From: an uncultured Acidobacteriota bacterium
GTDB lineage: Bacteria; Acidobacteriota; Thermoanaerobaculia; Multivoradales; UBA5704
Assembly (NCBI GenBank): GCA_963757335.1
Contig: CAVWRJ010000013.1
Location: 471,803-535,802 of the forward strand
Direction: 5' to 3'
DNA length: 64,000 nt
The notes under the pieces were generated by a model. The model was not told where the DNA came from and made no database searches. It worked only from the letters and a program-made list of their open reading frames with translations. Positions 9,365-41,935 of this stretch are shown here, one piece after another; positions within the stretch are counted from its first letter, which is position 1; the number at the start of each line of letters is the position of its first letter. The position numbers and the translations under genes are program-made.

Positions 9365-11251
9365 TTACTGGCAGGTCGCGAACGTGCCGGTGTCGTTGAC
9401 CGAGGGCGCCGCCAGGCCGTAGGGGTTCGAGTAGGTCTTGACGAGACCGGTATGAGTGTCCGTCACCTCGACCGAGAAGCCGACGTTGGTCGTCGCGGCG
9501 TAGAAGACCCAGTAGCTGTTGAAGCCGCTGCAGGCGTCGAGCACCTTGACCAGCATCTCGGTGTTGTCGGCGCTGAAGAACCAGAAGGCGCCCGAGTTGG
9601 CGTTGAGCTTCGTCGTGTGGCCGGGGCCGGTCTGGCCGTCGCCGGTCCGCCAGGTGACCCGCACCCGGAAGCGGTCGCCCGCCGTGCAGAGAGTGGTGTC
9701 GTCGTCCGTGCAGGACGAGGTGTCGCCGTTCTTGTCGAGCAGGAAGAGGGTCGAGGTCTTGCCCTCGCCCAGGGTGGCACCGCTGGGGTTCTGAAGGGTC
9801 AGGCGGACAGTCCTGCCACTCCCCTTGGGGTTGGCGAAGGTGTGAACCTCGAAGGTCTTCGCGCCCTCCTGGTCGGGGCTCCAGGTCAGGGTACCGGTGG
9901 TCGCCGTATAGTCGGTCCCGGCGAGCCCGCTGCCGTCGCTCGTCGTGTACTGGACCGAAGCGGCGCCGGCGTGGCCCGCGCTGCGCTCGACCGTGATCGT
10001 CGCGGTGTCGCCCGCGACCACCTGGAACGAGTCGGCCTCGAACTTGATCGTGCCGGGGTTGCCGCCCGGGCCGCCCGGCGGGCCGGGGGGATGGTCCTCG
10101 TGGCCCGGGCCGCCGATCGAGAGGAGCGCCACCCTGTGCTCCTGGGCGATCGTGGCGCCGCCCTGCGGGTTGGCGACGAGGAGCTTGACGGTGCCCGCGC
10201 CGTTGGGGAGGAGGGGCACGAAGAAGGTCTTCGTGCTCTCGTCGCCGGCCGCCCAGCTGAGGATGCCGGAGGTAGGAGAGTAGTCCTTGCCCGCCAGCGC
10301 CGTGCCGTCGATCGTCGTGTAGCCGACCGCGACCGCTCCAGCCGCGCTGCCCGAGCGCTCGACCGTGATCACCGCCTCGCCGGCCGAGGAGACGGCGACA
10401 TAGTCGTTTTCGTCGAAGCCGAGAACGCCCGCCCCACCGCCGCCACCGTCCCCGCCACCGCTCCCGGCGGGAAGGACGAGGATCGCCGTACCGCGGGTGG
10501 CGAAGATGGTGGCGCCGCCGGTCGGGTTGGCGAGGGCGAGCTGGATGGTCCGGCCGCCGCTCGTGGGCGACGGGAGGAGAGTGACGTTGAAGGTCTTGGC
10601 CGCGACATCACCGTTGACCCAGGAGAGGGTTCCCGAGGTGGGGACGAAATCGACTCCCGCCACCGCCGTACCGGCGGTCGCGCTGTAGCCGACGGTCACC
10701 GCGCCCGTCCCGCCCTCCGTCCGCTCGACATTCACGGTGACCACCGTCGTGCCCGCCGGAATCGTGAAGCTCGGCTCGTCGAAGCGAAAAACGCCGGGAT
10801 GGCTGTCGCCACCGCCACCGCCGCCGCTCCCCCCGGGGAGGACGAGGGTCGCCGTACCGCGGGTGGCGAAGATCGTGGCGCCACCGGTCGGATCAAAGAG
10901 CGCGAGTTGGATGGTCTTGCCGGCGCTTCCGGAGGGCGGCAACAGGGTGACGTTGAAAGTCTGGGTCGCCTGGTCCCCGTTGGCCCAGGAGAGAATGCCG
11001 GACGTGGGGACGAAGTCGGTGCCCGCCACCGCCGTGCCGGCGGTCGCGCGGTAGCCGACCGAGACCGCGCCGGTGCCGCCGCTCGAACGCTCGACCCGGA
11101 CGGTCACGACCGTGGTGCCCGCCGGGATGGTGAAGCTCGGTTCGTCGAACCGGAAGACACCGGGGCCGCTGTCCGTCGCCTGGGCCCGGCCGGCGAACGC
11201 CGGCAGGAGCAGGAAGGTCGCCATCGCCAGGATGGCCTTCAGGGTTCTCAT
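9365..11251 (-). CDS. Secreted protein with four Calx-beta domains and a conserved ~105-aa Cys-containing C-terminal domain (shared with 21155..22264 and 39127..40041)
   Basis: AGGAGG RBS 7 nt upstream of ATG 11251; signal peptide; 4 repeats with Calx-beta signature (AVxVGYxTxDGTAxAGxDY...GxLxW); C-terminal FWFF...NTEMLVKVLDAC...TDTHTGLVKTY domain. Confidence 0.8.
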   Translation of the reverse strand: MRTLKAILAMATFLLLPAFAGRAQATDSGPGVFRFDEPSFTIPAGTTVVTVRVERSSGGTGAVSVGYRATAGTAVAGTDFVPTSGILSWANGDQATQTFNVTLLPPSGSAGKTIQLALFDPTGGATIFATRGTATLVLPGGSGGGGGGDSHPGVFRFDEPSFTIPAGTTVVTVNVERTEGGTGAVTVGYSATAGTAVAGVDFVPTSGTLSWVNGDVAAKTFNVTLLPSPTSGGRTIQLALANPTGGATIFATRGTAILVLPAGSGGGDGGGGGAGVLGFDENDYVAVSSAGEAVITVERSGSAAGAVAVGYTTIDGTALAGKDYSPTSGILSWAAGDESTKTFFVPLLPNGAGTVKLLVANPQGGATIAQEHRVALLSIGGPGHEDHPPGPPGGPGGNPGTIKFEADSFQVVAGDTATITVERSAGHAGAASVQYTTSDGSGLAGTDYTATTGTLTWSPDQEGAKTFEVHTFANPKGSGRTVRLTLQNPSGATLGEGKTSTLFLLDKNGDTSSCTDDDTTLCTAGDRFRVRVTWRTGDGQTGPGHTTKLNANSGAFWFFSADNTEMLVKVLDACSGFNSYWVFYAATTNVGFSVEVTDTHTGLVKTYSNPYGLAAPSVNDTGTFATCQ

Positions 11252-14428: not shown

Positions 14429-17400
14429 CTATCCCGCCGCGGCCACCTTGGCCACTTCGGCCACCTCGGCGAGCGCGTCCGTGAGAACGGAGAGAAAAAG
14501 ATCGCAGTGCTCGTCCTTCAAGGCGATCGGCGGTTTCATCTTGAGGACGTTGTGGTGCGGGCCCTCGGTCGCGAGGAGGACCCCGCGCCGCCGGGCGGCC
14601 TCCAGGGTGATCGCCGCCTCCCGCGGCGCCGGCTCCCGGGTCTCCCGATCGCGGACCAGCTCGACGCCGAGGAAGAGCCCGAGCCCGCGGACATCGCCGA
14701 TCAGCGGCTGGCGCTGCTGAAGCTCGCGGAGATCGGCCAGGAGGCGCCGGCCTATCCGCTCGGCATTCTGCTGCAGGCGTTCGTCGCGGATCACGTCGAG
14801 CACGGCGAGGCCGATCGCCGCCGAGACCGGGTTGCCGCCGAAGGTGTTGAAGTACTCCATACCGTTATGGAACGAGGCCGCGATCTCCGGCGTAGTCACC
14901 ACCGCCGCCAGCGGATGCCCGTTGCCCAGCGGCTTCCCGAGGGTGACGATGTCGGGTACCACCCCCTGGGTCTCGAAGGCCCACAGGTGGCTCCCTGCTC
15001 GGCCGAGCCCCACCTGCACCTCGTCGGCGATACACACCCCGCCCGCCGCCCGCACCCCTTCGTAGGCCGCGGCGAGGTAGCCGGGGGGGAGGACGATGTG
15101 TCCCCCACAGCTGTGGATCGACTCGGCATAGAAGGCGGCCAGGCGGGAGCCTCGGGTCTGGATGTCCGCGATCCGCTCGCCCACCGACCCGGCGTAGAGC
15201 CGGCCGAGGCCGGGGCCGTCCGGATCGTCGCTCCGGAAACGCCCGCGGTAGCCGTCCGGCAGCTCGCAGACCTGGACGTGCTCCGGTCGCCCCTGGCCGC
15301 CGGGGCCGTTGAGCTTGTAGGGGGAGAGCTCGACCAACGAGGTCAGGTTGCCGTGGTAGGCGTGGTCGACGACCAGGACGTCACGGCCCCCGGTGTGAGT
15401 GCGGGCGAGGCGGAGGGCGAGGTCGTTCGCCTCGCTCCCGGAGTTGACGAGGAAGCAGACGCTCAAGGGCTCGGGGAAGGTCGCCGTCAGACGCCGGACG
15501 TAGCGGACGACCGCGTCGTGGAGGTAGCGGGTGTTGGTGTTCAAGCGCCCCATCTGCTCCCGGCCGGCCGCCACCACCCGGGAATGGCAGTGGCCGACGT
15601 GGCAGACGTTGTTGACCATGTCGAGGTAGGCCCGGCCGCTCTCGTCGTAGAGGAACTGTCCCTCTCCCCGGACGAGCTTGAGCGGCTCGGCGTAGGAGAG
15701 GCTGAGCGAGCGCCCGAGATGGAGCTGGCGCTGGCGCTTCAAGTAGGCCGGCTCGCGCGGCGGCGGCTCTGCCGAAGCCCCCTCCGGCAACCCGAGGACG
15801 AGGTTGGGGTCCGGGCTCACGCTCTCCCAGACATCTAAGGTACTCGGCGGGGCGACGCCGTAGATCCCGCACCCCTCGTCCAGGGTATGGGTGAGGAGCT
15901 GGAGGTGGAGGTGGGGGGGCCAGCCGCCGTTCTCGGCGGCGCTCCCGATCTGGCCCACGAGCGCCCCAGCTTCCAGCCGCTCCCCGGCGGCGAGCCGGCC
16001 GAGGACCTCCCGGTCGAGATGGCCGTAGAGGGTCCAGAACGGTATTCTCCTGTTCGGCGCTGGCTCCAGGTCCCTCTCTGTCGCATGCGCGAGGAGGACG
16101 ACGGGCCCATAGTCGCCGGGGCCGCGGTCCTCGATCGCCGCGACCGTACCGGCGAGCGCTGCGCAGACCGGCTCCCCCGGTTCGGCGTAAACGTCCACCC
16201 CTAAATGCACGTCGCGCTGCTCGCCGGTCGCCAGGGCGAACTGGGAGCCGCGGTTGATCGGCCGGCGCTCCAGGTAGCGGCCGATCCCGAAGCGCGCCCC
16301 GCTCTCCTGCATTTGCCCGAAGACATAGCCGGTGAGCGCGGAGAGATCGCCGGGATCGACCCCCGCCGCCGCCACCGCCGCCTCTCCCAGGTCGACCCGC
16401 ACCCGCGGCGCGGACTTGAGGCCGGGGACGACCGGGGCGAAACCGCCGCTGTGCGCCGCGATCCAGCCGACGATCCGGTGGGCCTCGGGGCTGGGCTCGC
16501 GGCCGCAGGCGTCCCGCAGGGTGAAATGGGCGAGGTGGGTGTTGACCGCGGCGAGGCGCGCCAGGAGAGCCCACACCCCCTCCTGGCTGATCAGGAGGTA
16601 GTCGTTGCCCGGGGCTTCTGAGTGCTGCCAGGCGGCCATGACGATGCTCATGGCGAGCCGGGTGAGGATGAGCTCCCAAAGGAGGGCGAGCTCGACCCCG
16701 GTCAACCGGAGGACGTCGTCGTAGGCGTTGACGAGCGGGAGGATGGATTCTAGGGGCCGGTCCTGGCCGAGCATGGCATAGGCGCACGCTACGGCGAGGT
16801 TCGAGATCCGCGGGCCATGGATCATGTCGCCGAAGTCGATGATCCCGGAGACCCGGCCGTCCTCGCCGATGAGCACGTTGTGGTCGGAGGCGTCGCCATG
16901 GATCACCTGCGCCGGGCAGCCGGCGAGCCGGGGGAGGATCGCCGCCGCGAAGCGTCCCAGGACCCGGCCGGCGAGCTCTCGGCGGGCGGAATCGGCGACG
17001 AGCGGCAGCCGGGGCAGGAGATCGCCGGCGGTCTGCATCGCCCAGCGGTGCGGCCGCCGCATGCGGGGGTGCTCGAAACCCGCGAAGGCGCGGTCCATCC
17101 GGGCGAGGAAGCGGCCGAGGGAGGCGAAGGTGGCGGCGGCGGTGGGACTCGCGCCACTCGCGTTGGGGTGCCTCCCCCAGGGCCACCCTGGGAGCCAGGT
17201 GAGGAGGCGCACCGGCCGCTCGGCGCCGTCCCCCGTCGCCACTGTCACCTTGGCGATCGACTCGCCATCCGCTGCCAGGACCGGACGGGGAACGGGGAGA
17301 GATGGATCGCGGCTCGCCAGGTGCAGCAGCGCCCGGTTCTGGAAGTCGAGCTCCCCAAGGTCCGCCATCGGCGCCATCGGCGCCATCGGCGGATGAACCT

Positions 17401-17569
17401 TGAGGACGTAGAGCTCCCCGTCTCTCGTCGCTACCCGGAAGTTATGGTCGTGCTCCCCGGGGAGGGGGAGGACCTCGACTCCCTCGCTCGCGATGCCGTA
17501 GAGCCGGGCGAGGATCTCGCGGGCGGCCTCTGGGGTCACCGGGGCCGCTGTCGTGGGCAGGGTAGTCAT
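14429..17569 (-). CDS. Tri-domain fusion: APH/homoserine-kinase-II-type phosphotransferase + M23-peptidase-like domain + class III (PLP) aminotransferase; candidate amino-alcohol kinase / phospho-lyase
   Basis: 1046-aa ORF; N-term kinase motifs ([19 protein letters not shown]); mid region M23-like ([14 protein letters not shown]...FWTLYGHLD); C-term class III aminotransferase (GNGHPLAAV..., KPPIALK lysine region). Confidence 0.8.
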
Positions 17570-21154: not shown

Positions 21155-22264
21155 ATGAAGACGACGAGTTACCGGTCGCTCCGACGCCGTATTCTGGCGC
21201 TCGCCTTCGCCGCCGTCCTGGGGCTGGTGTCCGCCCCCGGCGCGGAGGCGCGGGACGCCTGCGAGGTCGGCCCGGAGGACCTGACGCCGGGCGTCCCGGT
21301 CGCCGACATCGCGGGGAGCGTGAGTTGCCCTTCCGGCCCGGTCTTCTTCGTCGACGTCCCCGCTGGGGCGACCCGGCTGACCTTCACGACCTCGGGCGGC
21401 GCCGGCAACGCCGATCTCCTGGTCAAGCTCGGCGCTCCCCCTACCTCCAGCGACTTCGACCGCGGCTCGCAGGAACCGGGCAACGCCGAGATGGTGCGGT
21501 TCGACAATCCGGCGGCCGGGACCTGGTACGCCCAGATCGTCCCGCGGCCCGGCTTCACGGGGGTGACGCTCACCGCCGATCTCGTGGCGCCCGAGACCGA
21601 GGTGAAAGACGGGATTCCCCAGACCAACCTGTCGGACGATCAGCCGGGCGGGGTCCAGTACTTCACGATCGACGTTCCCCCCGGGATCGCCAACCTCGCG
21701 GTGACGACGGCCGGCGGGACCGGCAACGCCGACCTCTTCGTCCGCCGCGGGGCTCTCCCCACGACGGCGATCTCCGACGCCTCCTCCCGCGGGCGCACCA
21801 ACAGCGAGCGGGTCGACATCCCCTCGCCCCAGGGCGGGGTGTTCAAGATCGCCCTGGTCGCCAGCGCGCCGTTCACCGGGGTCACCCTCGTCGTCACCCT
21901 GACCCCGGCTACCCCGGCCGGAGCCTGCGTCCCCACTCCCGAGGCCCTCTGCCTCCTGGGCGGCCGCTTCCAGGTCGACGTCACCTGGATCGACCAGCAC
22001 TCCGGCGGCCTCCAGGGGGTCGGCAAGTCGATCCCCGGCACCGACCAGACCGGCTACTTCTGGTTCTTCGGTCCGGACAACACGGAGCTGGTGGTCAAGA
22101 TGGTCGACGGGCGCACCTTAAACAACCACTTCTGGTTCTTCCGCGGCGGCCTCTCCGACGTGGACTACACGATCCGGGTCACCGACACCGCCACCGGAGT
22201 CAAGCGGACCTACCGAAACCCGCCGAACAGCCTGACGAGCAGCGCCGACACCTCGGCGTTCTGA
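21155..22264 (+). CDS. Secreted protein with two PPC (pre-peptidase C-terminal)-like domains and the shared Cys-containing C-terminal domain
   Basis: Signal peptide; GGAGNADLLVKLG and GGTGNADLFVRRG motifs; C-terminal FWFF...NTELVVKMVDG...TDTATGVKRTY; starts 15 nt after kinase stop. Confidence 0.75.
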   Translation: MKTTSYRSLRRRILALAFAAVLGLVSAPGAEARDACEVGPEDLTPGVPVADIAGSVSCPSGPVFFVDVPAGATRLTFTTSGGAGNADLLVKLGAPPTSSDFDRGSQEPGNAEMVRFDNPAAGTWYAQIVPRPGFTGVTLTADLVAPETEVKDGIPQTNLSDDQPGGVQYFTIDVPPGIANLAVTTAGGTGNADLFVRRGALPTTAISDASSRGRTNSERVDIPSPQGGVFKIALVASAPFTGVTLVVTLTPATPAGACVPTPEALCLLGGRFQVDVTWIDQHSGGLQGVGKSIPGTDQTGYFWFFGPDNTELVVKMVDGRTLNNHFWFFRGGLSDVDYTIRVTDTATGVKRTYRNPPNSLTSSADTSAF

Positions 22265-25611: not shown

Positions 25612-28600
25612 TTAAACTCCTAAGACCGTCCGCTTCCGGCGCAGCAGGGCGAAACCAGCACCCGCGAGAAGCAGGGCGAGGATGGCGAAGCCGAGCGGCG
25701 AGAGAGTCGGCACGTCGATCACCGACTGGGTGACCTGAAAAGTGGTGGGATCGATCACCGGAGTGACCGTTGCCGGGTTGTCGGTCAGGCCCGTCGCCTC
25801 GTTGGTACCGTTGTTGTCGCCGTCGAAGTGGATCGTCCCCTGGTTGCTGATCGTCGTTCCGGCGGTCCCGGGATTGATGGTCGCCTGAATGGTGATCGTC
25901 ACCGAGCCGCCGGCCGGAATGGCACCGTTCCAGGTCACCGTGCCGGCGCTCTGTGCCGCCACGCCGGAGGTGGCCGTGACGCTTACGAAGGTGAGGCCCG
26001 CCGGCAGGCTGTCGGTGAACTCGTTGCCGGGATTGTCCGCCTGGGCGGCGTTGCCGGAGTTGGTGAGCACGACCGTATAGGTCACGGTCCCGCCCTCGTT
26101 GGTGCTGCCGGTCACCGCCTTGGTGCCGGTGACGTCAGCACCTGGGCCGACGGTGAGCTGGGTCGGGTCGTTCTTGGCAGCGGTCCCCGGATCGTCGGTC
26201 ACCGCCGTCGCCTCGTTGGTGCCGTTGCCATCGGCGTCGAAGGCGATCTGCCCCTGGTTGGCGATGGTCTGGCCGGCCGTGTTGCTCTTGATGGTGGCAT
26301 GGATGGTGATCGTCACCTGCCCGACGACCGCCGGCAGCGCTCCGTTCCAGGTCACCGTGTTGGTGGCGACGTTGGCCGTGGCGGTGCCGGAGGTGGCGGT
26401 AGCCGAGACCAGGGTCAGGGTCGAGGGCAGAGCATCGGTGAATTCGTTGCCCGGGTTGTCCGCCTGCGCCCCGGAGCCCGTGTTATTCAGGGTGACCGTG
26501 TAGGTGATGGCACCGCCGGCGACAAAGCTGCCGGCGACGGTCTTCGTCCCCGAGACGGCCGCCGTGGCTGCGAAGGCGGTGCAGGTGAAGGCCGTGGGGG
26601 TCACGATGAGCGACCAGGTGTTGAGCTGGCCGGTGTCGAAGCGCGCCTCGTCGGCGACGTGGACCTTCCACACCCCCTGGGAGCTCCGACCTTCGGTGTA
26701 GGAGAACTGGTCGATGGGGTCGGGACCCAGGTTGGGGATGCCGAAGAGGCTCCAGATCGGCGAGTTGAAGGCCGGCAGCCAGTCGAGGGTGTAGGGAGCG
26801 TCGGCCGCGCCGGAGAGGTTCAAGTCGTTGGTAGAGTTGGCGGTGATCAGGGTATTGACGAAGTTGTCGCCGTCGCTGTCGCCGATGAAGGAACCGCGCA
26901 TGTAGATGAGGCTGGTGCCGTACCCGGAGGGCGCCTTGAGACCGACGACCAGGTCACCGGTGAAGGTGTGCTGGAGGTCGTCGACCCGGAATTCGAGCTG
27001 CGAGACATCGAGGTCGTCGGCGATCGTCATCGCGTCGGTGACACCCCGCAGGTCGTTGTCCGGGATGGCGAGGCCGCTCGGAATGGTGCGGGTGTAGGTC
27101 ACCGGGGTGCCGGGCCCCGTGGGGTTGCCGACGCGCACCGTGAAGTCGACGCTCTTGGTGCCGAGGGTCGAGGTGACGGTCATGGTGAAGTGGATCGACT
27201 GGCCGCAGAGCGCGCTCGTCGGCACGAGGAAGAGGAAGGGGGTGCCGGAGGTGACGCCCTGAGCCGCGATGGCGGAGTAGACCGAGCTCCCGGTCAGGAT
27301 GGTGACGCCCGGGGTCGACGTCGTGAGGGTCGCCGTCGCCGACGCCACGTTCATCGCCGTGTCGTGCCAGGGGTTGAGCAGATCGACCGTCAGCTTGATC
27401 GGCTCGCCGGGATCGATCGCACCGTTGTTGTTGCCCAGGGTGTCGTCGACCGTCAGGTTGTTGACGTCGAGGTAAGGGATCGAGAACGACTCGCCGACCC
27501 CGAGGAAGGCGCCGGCCCCCACGATGCCGTCCTGGCCCAGGGGGGAGATCGCCTTGTAGCCCAGGCCGCGGTCCGCGAAGCCGCCCCAGATCCACTTCTC
27601 GTTGGCGCAGGCATTGGCGGCGCAGTCGGCGTCGATCAGGGCGTCCCGCGCGTCGGTGAAGCTGGGGTTGATCGGCGTCATCTTGAGGCCGTCGGTGACG
27701 ATCGAGAGCATCTTGTCGTTGCCGGTCGGCACGTCGCCGTTCGCCCCCGCCGGATCGGCGATGATGCGGCTCCGCACCTCCCAGAGGGTGTTGGCCCAGA
27801 TCTCGCCGACGTTGTGCACCTCGAGGGCGCCGCCGCCGGCGAAGAAGACGTTCAACGGGCTCGGCGCGATGCCGCCGGCGGTATTGATCGTGACGTCGTC
27901 GACATCGGCCCAGGTGAGCGGGTTGACGCTGTTGTCCGTCGAATAGGGGAAGCGGCGGATGCCGTAGAGATAGTTGTCGGTCAGCCCGAGGAACTGGTAG
28001 GTGGCGTAGGCACCGGCCACGTACTCGGCGTTCGGGGGGAAGGCGTTGCTGCTGTTGAGGAGCGAAAGGGCGTAGAAATCGCTCCACCCCTCTCCCATGC
28101 CGCCCCCCTCATCCCAGATCAGGCCGTTGCCATCGCCGATCAGCCGGTTCGACGTGCCGTGGGTCAGCTCGTGGAGGACGACCGTGGCGTCCAGGCTGCC
28201 GTCCCGGTTCGGGGTCGGGAAGTCGAAGATGTACATCTGCATCCGACCCGATGTGCCGTCCGGCGGGGTGGAGAAGTTCGAGTTGTCGGTCCCCGAGCCG
28301 TCCTGGCACTCGGCGAGCACCGGGTCGCCGCCCGTGCCGCCGTTGGCGAAGTTGTTGGTCTGGAAGTTGCCGGCCGCCTCGTCGAAGCCGAAGCTGTAGA
28401 GCCGGTCGTGGTACCAGTTGGTGAGATAGAAAAGATGGGTGACGGTGCCGCGCTGCGCCTGGGTGTCGGTGGGCGGGGTGCCGGCATCCGGGTTGCCGCC
28501 CATGGGGGCCGGCGTGTAGGCGTAGCCGGTGCCGAGGAAGTCGCGCTGGTGTGTGTTGGCGTCGACGTTGCCGACCGGCCGGCCGTTGTCGTCGAGCAGC

Positions 28601-29826
28601 CCCGCGTCAGGGGCGTCGTCGGCGTCGGTGTCCAGATAGGTGTCGGTGTTGTTGCCGGTCGTCGTGTTGCCGCCGTCCGGAATCCAGCCGTCGGGGGAGG
28701 CCGTCGTGTCCTGCGCCGTCGACATGTTGACCGTCGTCCGGGCGATCTCGGGGAACTGGGTGCCCGAGCCGGGAGTGACGTTGGTCGGCGAGTGCGGCGC
28801 CGGGCTCTCGGCCGGGGTCTTGCCGTCCCCCTGCACGTAGACGCTGAAGCGCGCCTCCTCGGTCGAGGCGTAGCTCCGCATGTTTTTCCGCCAGAGGAGG
28901 ACGCCGCTGCCGGCGTCGACCAGGGTGTTCCAGTCGCCGGGGCCCTTGGCGAAGGTGATCTGCTGCCAGGCCGGCACGAGAACGCCGGGGCCCAAGGGGA
29001 AGTAGACGAGGTGGCTCGCGACGCTCCCCTTGATCTGCGGATCGCCGGCGACGACGTCCACCCGCGACCCGTCGGGAGTGGCGTTCTTGAGGCTCATCTT
29101 CGCCGGGTCGAGGCTGATCCCCACCGACTTCATGGCGATCGCCAGGGCCTGCTGGGCGGTGACCTGGGGCGAGACCGCGAGGGCGTTGACCGGCGCGTCG
29201 GGAGCGAGGAGGCCGACGACGCGGAAGATCCGGCCGTTCCTGTCCAGGGTCACCCGGGTGTCGCTCTGGAAGACCGGCAGACCGTTCGCCGTCTGCTCGA
29301 AGCGCACCATCCTGAGGCCGCTCTTCCTATCGACGCTCTCACCTTTCCAGTGGAGGTTTGTGAGGTCGACCGCGGACAGGCCGTAGAGGCCCTCGTTGGC
29401 GCGCAGGAAGTCGAGGACGATGTCCTTGCCCGCCTTGCCGGGGGCGGCACCGGTCAGGGCGCCCTGGTGGTTGCGGACGATTTCCGGCGCGCCGAAGAGG
29501 GGCGAGAAGCGCACCTCGGCGCCGGGGGAGGCGGCCTTGAGCCGCGCGGCCCCCTGCTGGACGGCCTGGATCTGAGTCGTGGCCCGCGCCCCGGTGACCC
29601 GGGTGTCGATCCGGTTGCCGGAGAGGACCCGCACCAGGTCGCGCCGGCTGTTGACCCGCACGTCGAGGTTGCCGACGGCTCCCGCCACCCCCGGTTTCTC
29701 GGTGGGATGGGGCGGCGCCACGACGGCTCCGGCCGGCCATGCCGGGAGAAGGGCGAACGTCAGGAGAGCGGAGAGGATGAAGGTAGATGGGCGGCGAGAC
29801 AGGCGGGTGACCCGGGTTGATCCCAT
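25612..29826 (-). CDS. M36 (fungalysin)-family metallopeptidase precursor: signal peptide, FTP propeptide, M36 catalytic domain (HELTHG), P-domain-like, two DUF11 repeats, IPTL-CTERM-like C-terminal sorting tail
   Basis: ATG 29824-29826 with GAGGAG RBS (a longer GTG-initiated ORF to 29874 is less likely); VVLHELTHGTSNRL zinc motif; DLQHTFTGDLVVGLKAPSG (P-domain-like); GSGAQADNPGNEFTD x2 (DUF11); terminal VPTLSPLGFAILALLLAGAGFALLRRKR. Confidence 0.8.
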   Translation of the reverse strand: MGSTRVTRLSRRPSTFILSALLTFALLPAWPAGAVVAPPHPTEKPGVAGAVGNLDVRVNSRRDLVRVLSGNRIDTRVTGARATTQIQAVQQGAARLKAASPGAEVRFSPLFGAPEIVRNHQGALTGAAPGKAGKDIVLDFLRANEGLYGLSAVDLTNLHWKGESVDRKSGLRMVRFEQTANGLPVFQSDTRVTLDRNGRIFRVVGLLAPDAPVNALAVSPQVTAQQALAIAMKSVGISLDPAKMSLKNATPDGSRVDVVAGDPQIKGSVASHLVYFPLGPGVLVPAWQQITFAKGPGDWNTLVDAGSGVLLWRKNMRSYASTEEARFSVYVQGDGKTPAESPAPHSPTNVTPGSGTQFPEIARTTVNMSTAQDTTASPDGWIPDGGNTTTGNNTDTYLDTDADDAPDAGLLDDNGRPVGNVDANTHQRDFLGTGYAYTPAPMGGNPDAGTPPTDTQAQRGTVTHLFYLTNWYHDRLYSFGFDEAAGNFQTNNFANGGTGGDPVLAECQDGSGTDNSNFSTPPDGTSGRMQMYIFDFPTPNRDGSLDATVVLHELTHGTSNRLIGDGNGLIWDEGGGMGEGWSDFYALSLLNSSNAFPPNAEYVAGAYATYQFLGLTDNYLYGIRRFPYSTDNSVNPLTWADVDDVTINTAGGIAPSPLNVFFAGGGALEVHNVGEIWANTLWEVRSRIIADPAGANGDVPTGNDKMLSIVTDGLKMTPINPSFTDARDALIDADCAANACANEKWIWGGFADRGLGYKAISPLGQDGIVGAGAFLGVGESFSIPYLDVNNLTVDDTLGNNNGAIDPGEPIKLTVDLLNPWHDTAMNVASATATLTTSTPGVTILTGSSVYSAIAAQGVTSGTPFLFLVPTSALCGQSIHFTMTVTSTLGTKSVDFTVRVGNPTGPGTPVTYTRTIPSGLAIPDNDLRGVTDAMTIADDLDVSQLEFRVDDLQHTFTGDLVVGLKAPSGYGTSLIYMRGSFIGDSDGDNFVNTLITANSTNDLNLSGAADAPYTLDWLPAFNSPIWSLFGIPNLGPDPIDQFSYTEGRSSQGVWKVHVADEARFDTGQLNTWSLIVTPTAFTCTAFAATAAVSGTKTVAGSFVAGGAITYTVTLNNTGSGAQADNPGNEFTDALPSTLTLVSATATSGTATANVATNTVTWNGALPAVVGQVTITIHATIKSNTAGQTIANQGQIAFDADGNGTNEATAVTDDPGTAAKNDPTQLTVGPGADVTGTKAVTGSTNEGGTVTYTVVLTNSGNAAQADNPGNEFTDSLPAGLTFVSVTATSGVAAQSAGTVTWNGAIPAGGSVTITIQATINPGTAGTTISNQGTIHFDGDNNGTNEATGLTDNPATVTPVIDPTTFQVTQSVIDVPTLSPLGFAILALLLAGAGFALLRRKRTVLGV

Positions 29827-30100
29827 ACGAAGCTCCTCGAAATGCACAGACAAAGAAGTCACAAATTTTAACACAACTCGCGCCGCGGGGCACCCCTTGA
29901 CCAGGATTTGGTACTGGGTCCGTGGGAATCCGAGGACGGGCGACTGGCTGCGCGGAGGGCCCGAAGGAGACCACCCGCAGGTTCAAAAGGACCCAGTACC
30001 CAGGACCCAGGTCGATTGGAGTCTCACCGGGGGGCGTGATACTTTGCCCGGTCTCGCGGGCCTTCGAACCCCGCTCCCCCTGGATGAAAAGGACGGTTTC

Positions 30101-39126: not shown

Positions 39127-40041
39127 ATGACCGCGTCTCGACCCGGCTTCAGAATCTTCTCCCTCGCCGCGTTCTCCCTGCTCTTCGCCGTGGCGCCGCT
39201 CCTGGCGGCGACCTCGACGGTCGTCTCCTGCCCCTACTCGACGGGTGGCGACGACATCCTGCGCGGTTTCTACCTGCAGGGCTATGCGGGTTCGAATCTG
39301 CGGACCGTCACCCTCGCCTACACCGCCAACGTCGCCGGAACGTACACGATCTCGCTCACCGCCCACCGAGGGGCTTTCGACGGCCTGGTCGTCGGCTCGC
39401 AGAGCGTGGCCGTCACCCTGAACCCCGGCCTGTTCACGGCGGTGACCTTCGACTTCGGCGGCGTCAAGGTGCCGACGGGCGCGACTCTCGCCTTCACCCA
39501 GACGGCCTCAGGCGGCCAGGTCTTCTACAACGTGGGGCCCTGTCAACCCGGCTCCTGCTCGGCCTGCCCCGGGGTGGTCGAGACCAACGATACGACACCG
39601 CCCCTCTCGACCGCGATCCGACAGAGCGTCGGCATCACCGTCACCCAGGACACCGCGGCCGGCGTCTGTACCCCCAGCGACACCGTCCTCTGTATCGACA
39701 ACAACCCCGGCGACCGCCGGTTCATGATCACCGCCACCTACTCGACGAGCCAGGGTGGCGGGCTGTCGGGCAACGGACACGCGATCGCGCTCTCGTCGCT
39801 GGGCGTCAACCAGGGCGGGCTGTTCTGGTTCTTCGCGCGGACCAACCCGGAGATGCTCGTCAAGGTGCTCAACGCCTGCGGCACCAACAGCCGGTTCTGG
39901 GTGTTCTTCTCCGCCGGCACCAACGTGGGCTTCAGCGTGACCGTGCGCGACACCGTCACCGGCAGCCAGAAAACCTATATCAACCCGGATCTCAATCCCG
40001 CGCCGCCGCTCCAGGACACCAACGCCTTTACCTGCCCCTAG
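39127..40041 (+). CDS. Secreted protein: unknown beta-rich N-terminal domain + the shared Cys-containing C-terminal domain
   Basis: GAGGAGG RBS before ATG 39127; signal peptide MTASRPGFRIFSLAAFSLLFAVAPLLAA; C-terminal FWFF...NPEMLVKVLNAC...RDTVTGSQKTY...AFTCP. Confidence 0.75.
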   Translation: MTASRPGFRIFSLAAFSLLFAVAPLLAATSTVVSCPYSTGGDDILRGFYLQGYAGSNLRTVTLAYTANVAGTYTISLTAHRGAFDGLVVGSQSVAVTLNPGLFTAVTFDFGGVKVPTGATLAFTQTASGGQVFYNVGPCQPGSCSACPGVVETNDTTPPLSTAIRQSVGITVTQDTAAGVCTPSDTVLCIDNNPGDRRFMITATYSTSQGGGLSGNGHAIALSSLGVNQGGLFWFFARTNPEMLVKVLNACGTNSRFWVFFSAGTNVGFSVTVRDTVTGSQKTYINPDLNPAPPLQDTNAFTCP

Positions 40042-40052
40042 CTGCGGGCAGC

Positions 40053-41486
40053 TCAGCCGAGAGTCCGCACGAACCGGTCGAACACCGTCTTCCTCTGCGT
40101 CTCGACGCAGAGGAAGACGGGGGCCTGCCTCCACCCCACGATGTTCGACACCGCGCTCCCGGCGGCCCCGAGCGTCACGGTCGCGAAGGGGAGCCCCTGG
40201 CAATGGCCGTCCCGGCTCGGGCCGCGGAAGAGGTGGACCTGCGGGAAGGGGGTTGGCGTGGCGTTGATCGAGACTTCGATCTGGGTGGTGAAGCGGTGCT
40301 CGGCAGGGAACCAGCGGGAGATGAAGCGGGTCACCTCCTCGTGAACCGGCCCGTCGTAGAGGAGCCGGTTGGGCGAGCCCGCTCCGAGGTCGCCGACGAG
40401 GGCGCCCGCGGTCGCATTGATCAGGAGCAGCTGGCGGATCTGGGCGGGCGGCAGATCCGGGAGCTGCTCTAAAAGAAGGGCGAGGGTTCCGGTCACGAAG
40501 GGCGCCGAGATCGAGCTGCCGGAGTTGACGGTGGGCTGCTCGCCGCCCTGGGTCGTCACGTCCTTCCCGGGCGCGAAGAGGTCGACGCAGCGGCCGAAAC
40601 CGGAACGTGGCGGGCGTTGATCGAGGATGTCGCTGATCCCCACGGTGATCGTCTCGGGCGAGCTGGCGGGGGTGGACTGGCAGGCGTCGGCGCCATTGTT
40701 GCCGGCGGCGTCGACCAGGAGGACCCCCAAGGCGTCGAGCTGCTGGAAGAGCGCCTCCTCGGCGGCGTTCGGGCCGAACCCGATATAGCTCATGTTGACG
40801 ACCGCCGGGACCGTGGGATTCGCCTGGCGCCAGGTGACGATGTCGTCCAGGGCGGCGAGCTCGGCGAAGCCGTAGATGTTGCCGGCGCAGTCGGCGATCC
40901 GCATCAGGAAGAGCGAGGCCTCCGGAGCGACGCCGTAGACCTTGCCAGCGGCAGCACTGGAGACGATCGTGGCGTGGGTATGGTCCGTCCCGCAGGTGTT
41001 GAAGACTCCCAGGCCGTCCGAGAGGTAGTCGGTGCCGCCGACGATCCGCGCCCCGAATTCGTCCAGGTTGGGGAAGATGCTGGTGTCGAGGACGAAGATC
41101 CGCACTCCGCGCCCGGTGTAGGGGCGGACGGCGTTGCCGTCCAGGGGGAGGGTCCGCTGGTTGACGCGGTCGAGCGGCCAGGGGGCGCCGTCCGCCGTCA
41201 GGTGGAGGGTCGGCAGAAGCTGGACGTCGTAGCCCTGGAAGGCCAGGAGCCGAGCGGTCTCGGCGGGCATCTCGGCCACCACGGTCCCGGGGAGGTTCCG
41301 AAGCTCGCGCCGGGGGACGAGGCCGAGGGGGCGGAAGAAGGTGACCAGGCGTGTCATCCCCGCGGAGTCCCGGGCCACGGTGTTGGTCCCCGCCCGCACC
41401 ACGTACTCTCCCGCGCGAGCGGCCGGGGAAAGGGCCAGGGTCCAGACCAGCGCGAGCAGGAACGGGAAGGGGGGGAAACGTCTCAT
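40053..41486 (-). CDS. S8-family (subtilisin-like) serine peptidase precursor
   Basis: ATG 41484-41486 with AGGAGG RBS and signal peptide MRRFPPFPFLLALVWTLALSPAARA; catalytic Asp (VLDTS), His (GTDHTHAT) and Ser (GSSISAPFVTG) blocks. Upstream in-frame (QGADDSR)n extension rejected. Confidence 0.8.
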   Translation of the reverse strand: MRRFPPFPFLLALVWTLALSPAARAGEYVVRAGTNTVARDSAGMTRLVTFFRPLGLVPRRELRNLPGTVVAEMPAETARLLAFQGYDVQLLPTLHLTADGAPWPLDRVNQRTLPLDGNAVRPYTGRGVRIFVLDTSIFPNLDEFGARIVGGTDYLSDGLGVFNTCGTDHTHATIVSSAAAGKVYGVAPEASLFLMRIADCAGNIYGFAELAALDDIVTWRQANPTVPAVVNMSYIGFGPNAAEEALFQQLDALGVLLVDAAGNNGADACQSTPASSPETITVGISDILDQRPPRSGFGRCVDLFAPGKDVTTQGGEQPTVNSGSSISAPFVTGTLALLLEQLPDLPPAQIRQLLLINATAGALVGDLGAGSPNRLLYDGPVHEEVTRFISRWFPAEHRFTTQIEVSINATPTPFPQVHLFRGPSRDGHCQGLPFATVTLGAAGSAVSNIVGWRQAPVFLCVETQRKTVFDRFVRTLG

Positions 41487-41573
41487 CGATCGACCTCCTG
41501 GTACAGCCCGACATCCTCTAAGTGGGTGCCTCGGGGGGGGCGGGAGGAGGACACTCTCATCGTCGCGACGCGG

Positions 41574-41888
41574 GTCGTCGGCGCCCGGGCGCGGGTCGTC
41601 CGCGCCCTGGCGCGAGTCGTCCGCGCCCTGGCGCGAGTCGTCCGCGCCCTGGCGCGAGTCGTCCGCGCTCTGGCGCAAGTCGTCCGCGCCCTGGCGCGAG
41701 TCGTCCGCGCCCTGGCGCGGGTCGTCCGCGCCCTGGTGCGAGTCGTCCGCTCCCTGGCGCGAGTCGTCCGCGCCCTGGCGCGAGTCGTCCGCGCCCTGGT
41801 GCGGGTCGTCCGCGCCCTGGCGCGAGTCGTCTGCGCCCTGGCGCGAGTCGTCCGCGCCCTGGTGCGGGTCGTCCGCGCCCTGGCGCCG
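41574..41888. repeat. Near-perfect 21-bp tandem repeat, ~15 copies, unit GTCGTCCGCGCCCTGGCGCGA
   Basis: Read directly; few point variants (GCGGG, CTGGT, GCTCT, TCTGC); each unit contains imperfect palindrome CGCGCC-CT-GGCGCG; open in frames of both strands (RPRPGAS / QGADDSR). Confidence 0.85.
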
Positions 41889-41935
41889 GTCCAAGCGAGC
41901 AGGAGCTTGGCATTGACCCTGCTAAACTAGCTGTG

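Follow-up and report, generated by a model that had tools for sequence, protein, structure and literature searches.

The closest working analogues of the protein domain described here appear to be T9SS CTDs, PPC domains, docking modules of the dockerin/SLH type, and CBMs, although neither profiles nor folds placed it in any of these groups. Many unrelated signal-peptide proteins terminate in T9SS CTDs (Por_Secre_tail, PF18962/TIGR04183, Bacteroidota), which are small all-beta domains placed at the very C-terminus. The bacterial pre-peptidase C-terminal domain (PPC, PF04151) is a promiscuous beta-sandwich accessory that secreted proteins carry toward their C-terminus, frequently as tandem copies; whether it acts in binding or as a secretion aid is ambiguous. 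Dockerin, SLH, and LysM-type modules are non-catalytic; many exported proteins of one lineage bear them, at either end and in several copies, and the modules share a binding partner, which is a wall polymer or a scaffold protein. Acidobacteriota rank with the most abundant bacteria of soils and sediments, with few members in culture. How they export enzymes and retain them near the cell is poorly known, and no T9SS is known from this phylum.

The domain found here resembles T9SS CTDs in the above features, in its apparent restriction to one lineage, and in the overlap of its cargo (proteases, propellers, adhesin repeats, and choice-of-anchor families). In contrast to T9SS CTDs, it consists of ~120 aa with ten predicted strands and two predicted disulfides, and is often tandem and also N-terminal or stand-alone, instead of being always a single C-terminal copy. 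Models of the Por_Secre_tail, TIGR04183, or TIGR04131 type gave no match at E ≤ 1 in the three proteins that carry it (Pfam and NCBIfam), and no T9SS CTD profile matched any of 67 isolated domain copies in Pfam at E ≤ 5; the assignment as something other than a T9SS CTD, made in a first-pass annotation of this DNA, is borne out by both profile searches and anatomy. With PPC domains it shares the promiscuous, C-terminal, and often tandem use, whereas its motifs and Cys pattern are unrelated; one of the three proteins (protein B) has two true PPC domains followed by the shared domain, which the Pfam PPC model did not match, nor did that model match in proteins A and C. The use of the domain on many exported proteins, at either terminus and in several copies, is also that of dockerin, SLH, and LysM-type modules, but no sequence or fold relationship to these was detected, and the producers are diderm Acidobacteriota. 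In structure, the domain comes closest, though weakly, to beta-sandwich accessory domains or putative carbohydrate-binding domains of the CBM and glycoside-hydrolase type (e.g. 7vma, 2wmi, and 9q5u), which are likewise all-beta and modular in use; neither a CBM family profile nor a clear CBM fold was matched, and the domain model showed no CnaA-like or CnaB-like fold. The domain family is new, being unnamed, without a solved structure, large, and from an understudied phylum. In kind, it seems to be another modular accessory domain of exported proteins, with a function proposed from architecture and conservation.

Three secreted proteins and their shared domain

The window, i.e. the whole 64-kb stretch of DNA analyzed, contains the following genes and domain copies.

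9365..11251, minus strand: gene A, 628 aa; signal peptide, four Calx-beta domains, then the shared domain (ORF and Pfam)
9368..9721, minus strand: domain copy in protein A, 118 aa, 4-Cys type (alignment, BLASTP, and tblastn)
21155..22264, plus strand: gene B, 369 aa; signal peptide, two PPC domains, then the shared domain (ORF and Pfam)
21914..22261, plus strand: domain copy in protein B, 116 aa, 2-Cys type (alignment, BLASTP, and tblastn)
39127..40041, plus strand: gene C, 304 aa; SPase-I-type signal peptide, unnamed N-terminal beta domain of ~150 aa, then the shared domain (ORF)
39655..40038, plus strand: domain copy in protein C, 128 aa, 4-Cys type with a PGD insertion (alignment, BLASTP, tblastn, and AlphaFold2)

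The C-terminal 116–128 residues of the three proteins align with 33 invariant columns, and pairwise BLASTP of the three copies gave 36–49% identity (E, 1e-24 to 1e-32). With each copy as the query against the whole window, tblastn returned exactly three sites (E, 1e-20 to 1e-28) and nothing further below E 0.04, leaving no fourth copy in the 64 kb. The similarity of the three C-termini far exceeds chance, and the alignment, BLASTP, and tblastn all agree on the shared C-terminal domain that had first been noticed on these secreted proteins. Its boundaries and leading motif needed correction: the domain is longer than the ~105 aa assumed; copy C starts not at 39710, which cuts the first disulfide loop, but ~50 nt upstream at ~39655; and the spacing of the first motif is C-x6-LC instead of C-x5-LC. 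The working motifs, spanning ~120 aa, are C-x6-LC ... RF-x-V ... G-x-(F)WFF-x3-N-x-E-hhh-K-V-h-D/N-G/A-C ... W-V-F in the first part and T-N/D-V ... V-x-D-T-x-T-G ... Y-x-N-P ... D-T-x-A-F-x-C in the rest. They are present in all three copies, with the third and fourth Cys (Cys3 and Cys4) missing in copy B, which has 'VDGR' where the others have 'LDAC' and ends in ...DTSAF, devoid of the terminal Cys. In copy C, the first Cys is encoded at 39667, and the last is the penultimate codon.

The N-terminal parts differ, as described earlier: Pfam assigns four Calx-beta stretches to protein A (E, 2.5e-51), two PPC stretches to protein B (E, 2.8e-24; best stretch, residues 63–128), and nothing significant to protein C, an identical copy of which is called on a Logan contig. 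Direct reading of the sequences shows an SPase-I-type leader on all three proteins and, in accordance with the first-pass annotation, neither a transmembrane helix nor a basic tail. The ends (...TFATCQ, ...DTSAF, and ...AFTCP) have no hydrophobic helix, and no NCBIfam sorting-signal model matched, which agrees with the proposed exclusion of PEP-CTERM, IPTL-CTERM, MYXO-CTERM, and LPXTG signals. The ~150-aa N-terminal domain of protein C (39211..39654, plus strand) is itself an unnamed small family, characterized by the conserved motif C-x-G-x2-E-(T/S) and unmatched in Pfam; its homologues occur in six of the loci retrieved below (L001, L007, L013, L025, L026, and L035), with the shared domain always behind it.

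Family size, architecture, and cargo

Searches of the three proteins against Pfam-A (2025 copy) and NCBIfam 20.0 gave no match over the domain even at E ≤ 1, and 67 isolated domain copies compared with Pfam at E ≤ 5 revealed no recurring family on it. The PDB sequence-profile search gave a single match, a Fab light chain at E 0.55, which was dismissed as chance. Matches to WAP were rejected as the identity of the domain because they belong to a Cys-rich tail behind it in one subfamily. No description of the domain was found in the full-text literature searched. Source databases annotate the homologues as 'hypothetical protein' or by names taken from their other domains, an annotation gap that the family fills. 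With no Pfam-A, NCBIfam, or PDB sequence match and no structural neighbor, the domain is unrecognized, as had been claimed; the alternative that it maps onto an existing characterized family was seen in neither the HMM nor the structure searches.

A word-indexed protein search with the three-copy profile retrieved 690 proteins, and an exhaustive hmmsearch with a 67-sequence profile against 1.84 billion representatives clustered at 50% identity retrieved 10,533 proteins at E ≤ 1e-3 (5,943 at E ≤ 1e-30), which extends the family far beyond three paralogs; the protein search queried with the 2-Cys copy gave only 17 short matches. With one genome scanned for each GTDB species, at least 598 matches were obtained, 594 of them confirmed. 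The best 80 of these at least 598 loci are all from Acidobacteriota MAGs (Thermoanaerobaculia, Holophagales, and Ca. Multivorans), and the closest among the matches listed is locus L001 of MAG MFD09368.bin.2.205, with a domain 92% identical to copy C. Among the best-scoring protein matches, source proteins with a named organism are mostly from Thermoanaerobaculia, Holophagales, or Acidobacteriota; the exceptions are three unclassified 'bacterium' MAGs and two partial short-contig proteins binned as Actinomycetota. No match was found by tblastn in the PLSDB plasmids.

In the best 80 genome loci, 73 ORFs bear the domain; in 67 of them (~90%), no more than 5 residues separate its end from the C-terminus, and 16 (22%) have two copies. 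The 150 top representatives are all multi-copy because they were selected by score; in this set, 123 have the domain at the C-terminus, 21 have it as two tandem copies that immediately follow the signal peptide and precede 100–1200 more residues, and 4 have four copies. The linkers between copies are rich in Ala, Gly, Pro, and Ser (median, 13 aa). Complete proteins composed of only a signal peptide and the domain also exist (e.g. P0020, P0024, P0026, and P0035), and a hydrophobic N-terminal h-region was found in 104 of 135 full-length representatives. At the ends of proteins with N-terminal or internal copies, no other C-terminal sorting tag was seen. Thus, of the C-terminal sorting, secretion, or anchoring module initially proposed, the modular use on unrelated exported cargo, mostly at the C-terminus, stands, whereas a strictly C-terminal tag does not, in view of the tandem copies, the pairs behind signal peptides, the stand-alone forms, and the copies located before a WAP-like tail.

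This tail defines a subfamily composed of a signal peptide, the domain, and 37 residues with eight Cys (C-x2-C...LCC...C...CP-x-IP) that match the Pfam WAP 'four-disulfide core' at E 1.2e-4 (P0067, P0079, and P0081; 5815..6486 of L005; 271..1377 of L013). The WAP fold is typical of protease inhibitors. Another group (P0169, P0174, P0208, and P0218; 823–843 aa) has a signal peptide, two tandem domain copies at the N-terminus, ~530 residues that match neither Pfam nor NCBIfam, and C-terminal ends that resemble each other (...SGD.N..P.AKI.VSG...GY.F); a Thermoanaerobaculia MAG is the source of one member.

The domain is appended to many unrelated signal-peptide proteins across the family, in line with the diversity of secreted cargo first read from the window. 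Its partners include propellers and related domains (Sortilin/BNR, lactonase-type, and FG-GAP propellers, and Vgb-lyase), peptidases (S8, S53, M28, and M23), and BACON, LamG, PKD, fn3, DUF11, VWA, Calx-beta, and PPC domains. The cargo of the C-terminal type, as named by NCBIfam, comprises choice-of-anchor families B, P, and X, NF038122 metalloproteases, and F510_1955-type glycosylhydrolase-like propellers, the last in 6 of 39 proteins. In NCBIfam naming, choice-of-anchor families are those whose members bear different C-terminal surface anchors in other lineages; their presence among the cargo is consistent with the domain filling an anchor slot.

Cysteines, predicted fold, and conserved residues

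Among 426 family instances, all four Cys are present in 355 (CCCC) and only the first two in 29 (CC--), other patterns being few; the pattern CC-C never occurs. The observation that the PPC-containing protein B lacks exactly Cys3 and Cys4 is correct, and its interpretation as a lost disulfide pair gains support from the joint retention or loss of these two Cys throughout the family, from which the pairing of Cys1 with Cys2 and of Cys3 with Cys4 follows as the supported arrangement. The former disulfide would lie at the N-terminal loop, and the latter would tie the 'DxC' turn to the C-terminal end.

The AlphaFold2 model of copy C, generated with 67 aligned sequences, has a pLDDT of 95.8 and a pTM of 0.89, and comprises ten strands, mostly arranged as consecutive hairpins, and one short helix. 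A structure search with this model found no strong match to any solved fold; the family thus adds a confidently predicted domain without a close solved structural neighbor. Over the 426 instances, the source proteins of which are mostly less than 50% identical, conservation reaches at least 94% at eleven positions, nine of which hold polar residues: Arg22, Phe59, Asn64, Glu66, Lys70, Trp82, and Asp99 at 98–100% (99–100% for Lys70, Glu66, and Asp99), and Thr89, Tyr108, Asn110, and Asp121 at ~94–96%. Judging from the order of the strands, Asn64, Glu66, Thr89, Tyr108, Asn110, and Asp121 would be placed at one end of the sheet, and, from the secondary structure of the model, Lys70 (in Leu68-Lys70-Leu72 of a central strand) and Asp99 (in Phe93-Val95-Val97-Asp99) probably face the hydrophobic sides of their strands. 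This degree of conservation may exceed the needs of folding alone, which we regard as an argument for docking.

Possible roles of the domain

We tentatively favor, with a probability of about 0.45, the reading that the domain is an autonomous, non-catalytic, extracytoplasmic all-beta docking or binding module with a partner common to all cargo. The cargo would be exported by Sec, and the domain would fold and be oxidized outside the cytoplasm. A putative site of conserved polar and aromatic residues would then bind the shared partner, most plausibly a polymer of the cell envelope or matrix or a surface scaffold protein, so that proteases, beta-propeller enzymes, and adhesin-like proteins would be kept attached instead of free, with tandem copies adding avidity. 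The analysis establishes the homology, modularity, distribution, and Cys covariation of the domain and a confident prediction of its fold, and from these we infer the extracytoplasmic location, the existence of the binding site, and the nature of the partner; export is supported by the hydrophobic h-regions, the SPase-I-type leaders, and the joint loss of one Cys pair. The tandem copies, the use at either terminus, the stand-alone forms, and the near-invariant polar and aromatic residues speak for a binding module over an export signal read at the C-terminus, and the breadth of the cargo, the choice-of-anchor partners, and the apparent restriction to one phylum point to a lineage-wide partner rather than a particular substrate. 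The weak structural matches to beta-sandwich and carbohydrate-binding domains also fit a binding role. On the other hand, the preference for the extreme C-terminus is stronger than in most CBM-like modules and resembles that of sorting domains; the conserved charged residues could form a buried structural network or a metal site instead of a ligand site; and part of the cargo (PQQ dehydrogenases, a multicopper oxidase, and M23 peptidases) could be periplasmic rather than at the cell surface. If the domain indeed marks thousands of exported proteins, it would offer a sequence handle for predicting the extracytoplasmic proteome from metagenomes and would point to one shared partner (an envelope polymer, a scaffold, or a machinery).

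The main rival, less likely in our estimation, is a secretion or sorting tag read by a so far undescribed machinery with which Thermoanaerobaculia and Holophagae would translocate proteins across the outer membrane or attach them; this would make the domain a functional analogue of the T9SS CTD and in which it may be cleaved off or used in covalent attachment. The C-terminal placement in ~90% of the ORFs, a very diverse cargo with the range of T9SS substrates (including the choice-of-anchor families), the apparent restriction to one phylum where the organism is named, a size and an all-beta nature near those of T9SS CTDs, and the absence of any other sorting signal from the domain proteins examined are as expected for such a tag. 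However, copies in common tandems, in pairs behind the signal peptide, or before the WAP-like tail are inner or N-terminal ones and cannot serve as a C-terminal signal, and a tag free of cargo, as in the stand-alone proteins, has no obvious use. No conserved motif ahead of the domain marks a cleavage site, and HMM similarity to T9SS CTD models is lacking. Furthermore, no secretion or processing machinery is linked to the domain genes in the window or the best 80 loci, and none of the T9SS core genes (SprA, PorV, PorU, and others) was found in the 64-kb window or the 80 loci of 12 kb. All-versus-all clustering of the neighbors in the best 80 loci recovered no conserved family other than abundant acidobacterial paralogs, such as TonB-dependent receptor-like proteins, Ser/Thr kinases, and permeases, and the three domain genes of the window are 10–18 kb apart in no common operon. 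The lack of a conserved neighbor, which we count in favor of docking, fits a module used genome-wide, not an operon-specific part. It seems unlikely, too, that the domain is the recognition or attachment tag of an undescribed sorting pathway specific to Acidobacteriota (for outer-membrane translocation or surface attachment); if so, it would be the counterpart of T9SS CTDs and exosortase signals, and would define the exoproteome of Thermoanaerobaculia and Holophagae.

With a similarly low likelihood, the domain might act in substrate targeting in the manner of CBMs, binding an environmental polymer (peptidoglycan, or a polysaccharide of plants, fungi, or bacteria) and bringing enzymes to their substrate, not to the producer's own surface. 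The tandem copies, flexible linkers, use at either terminus, and lectin-like stand-alone forms are compatible with this role, as are the conserved aromatics (FWFF, WVF, and Tyr108) alongside polar residues and the glycoside-hydrolase-like F510_1955 cargo. Carbohydrate-active enzymes, however, are not dominant, proteases, lactonase-type or PQQ propellers, and adhesin-like repeat proteins being equally common; proteins A and B of the window have no enzyme domain, and no Pfam CBM model matched.

A purely structural role as a stable cap, folding aid, or spacer of exported proteins, in which a buried salt-bridge network or an intramolecular isopeptide bond might arise among the invariant Lys, Asp/Asn, and Glu, is improbable: Lys70 and Asp99 on predicted hydrophobic strand faces, the near-complete conservation of Lys70, Glu66, and Asp99, reminiscent of the Lys, Asp-or-Asn, and Glu triads of isopeptide domains, and two disulfides that point to selection for stability are in its favor, but a mere stabilizer is not expected as a stand-alone secreted protein or with so many conserved polar positions, and a 2025 survey of the whole AlphaFold database reported no intramolecular isopeptide bonds outside CnaA-like and CnaB-like folds (PMC12617251), whereas the domain model strongly matches no solved fold. 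A covalent cross-link formed by the putatively buried invariant Lys, Glu, and Asp may nevertheless exist in a fold that belongs to neither the CnaA nor the CnaB class.

The remainder of the window is ordinary chromosome, with genes for an amino-acid permease, a hybrid histidine kinase, a Ser/Thr kinase with TPR repeats, an MFS transporter, an M36 fungalysin, GluRS, an S8 subtilase, and a barrel of the TonB-dependent type. The M36 fungalysin-type metallopeptidase (25612..29874, minus strand; 1420 aa) does not carry the shared domain; this large secreted protease combines an FTP propeptide with a P-domain and two DUF11 (CLIPPER) repeats. An ORF of 1046 aa (14429..17569, minus strand) combines an APH phosphotransferase, a Peptidase_M23 domain, and a class-III aminotransferase in an unusual three-way fusion. 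Directly 5' of the minus-strand S8 subtilase gene lies a 21-bp tandem repeat (41569..41886; 15.1 copies, 92% matches), which would encode (R/H)QGADD(S/P) heptads in the TTG-extended ORF (40053..41894, minus strand); the signal-peptide-like start, MRRFPPFPF..., is located downstream of the repeat.
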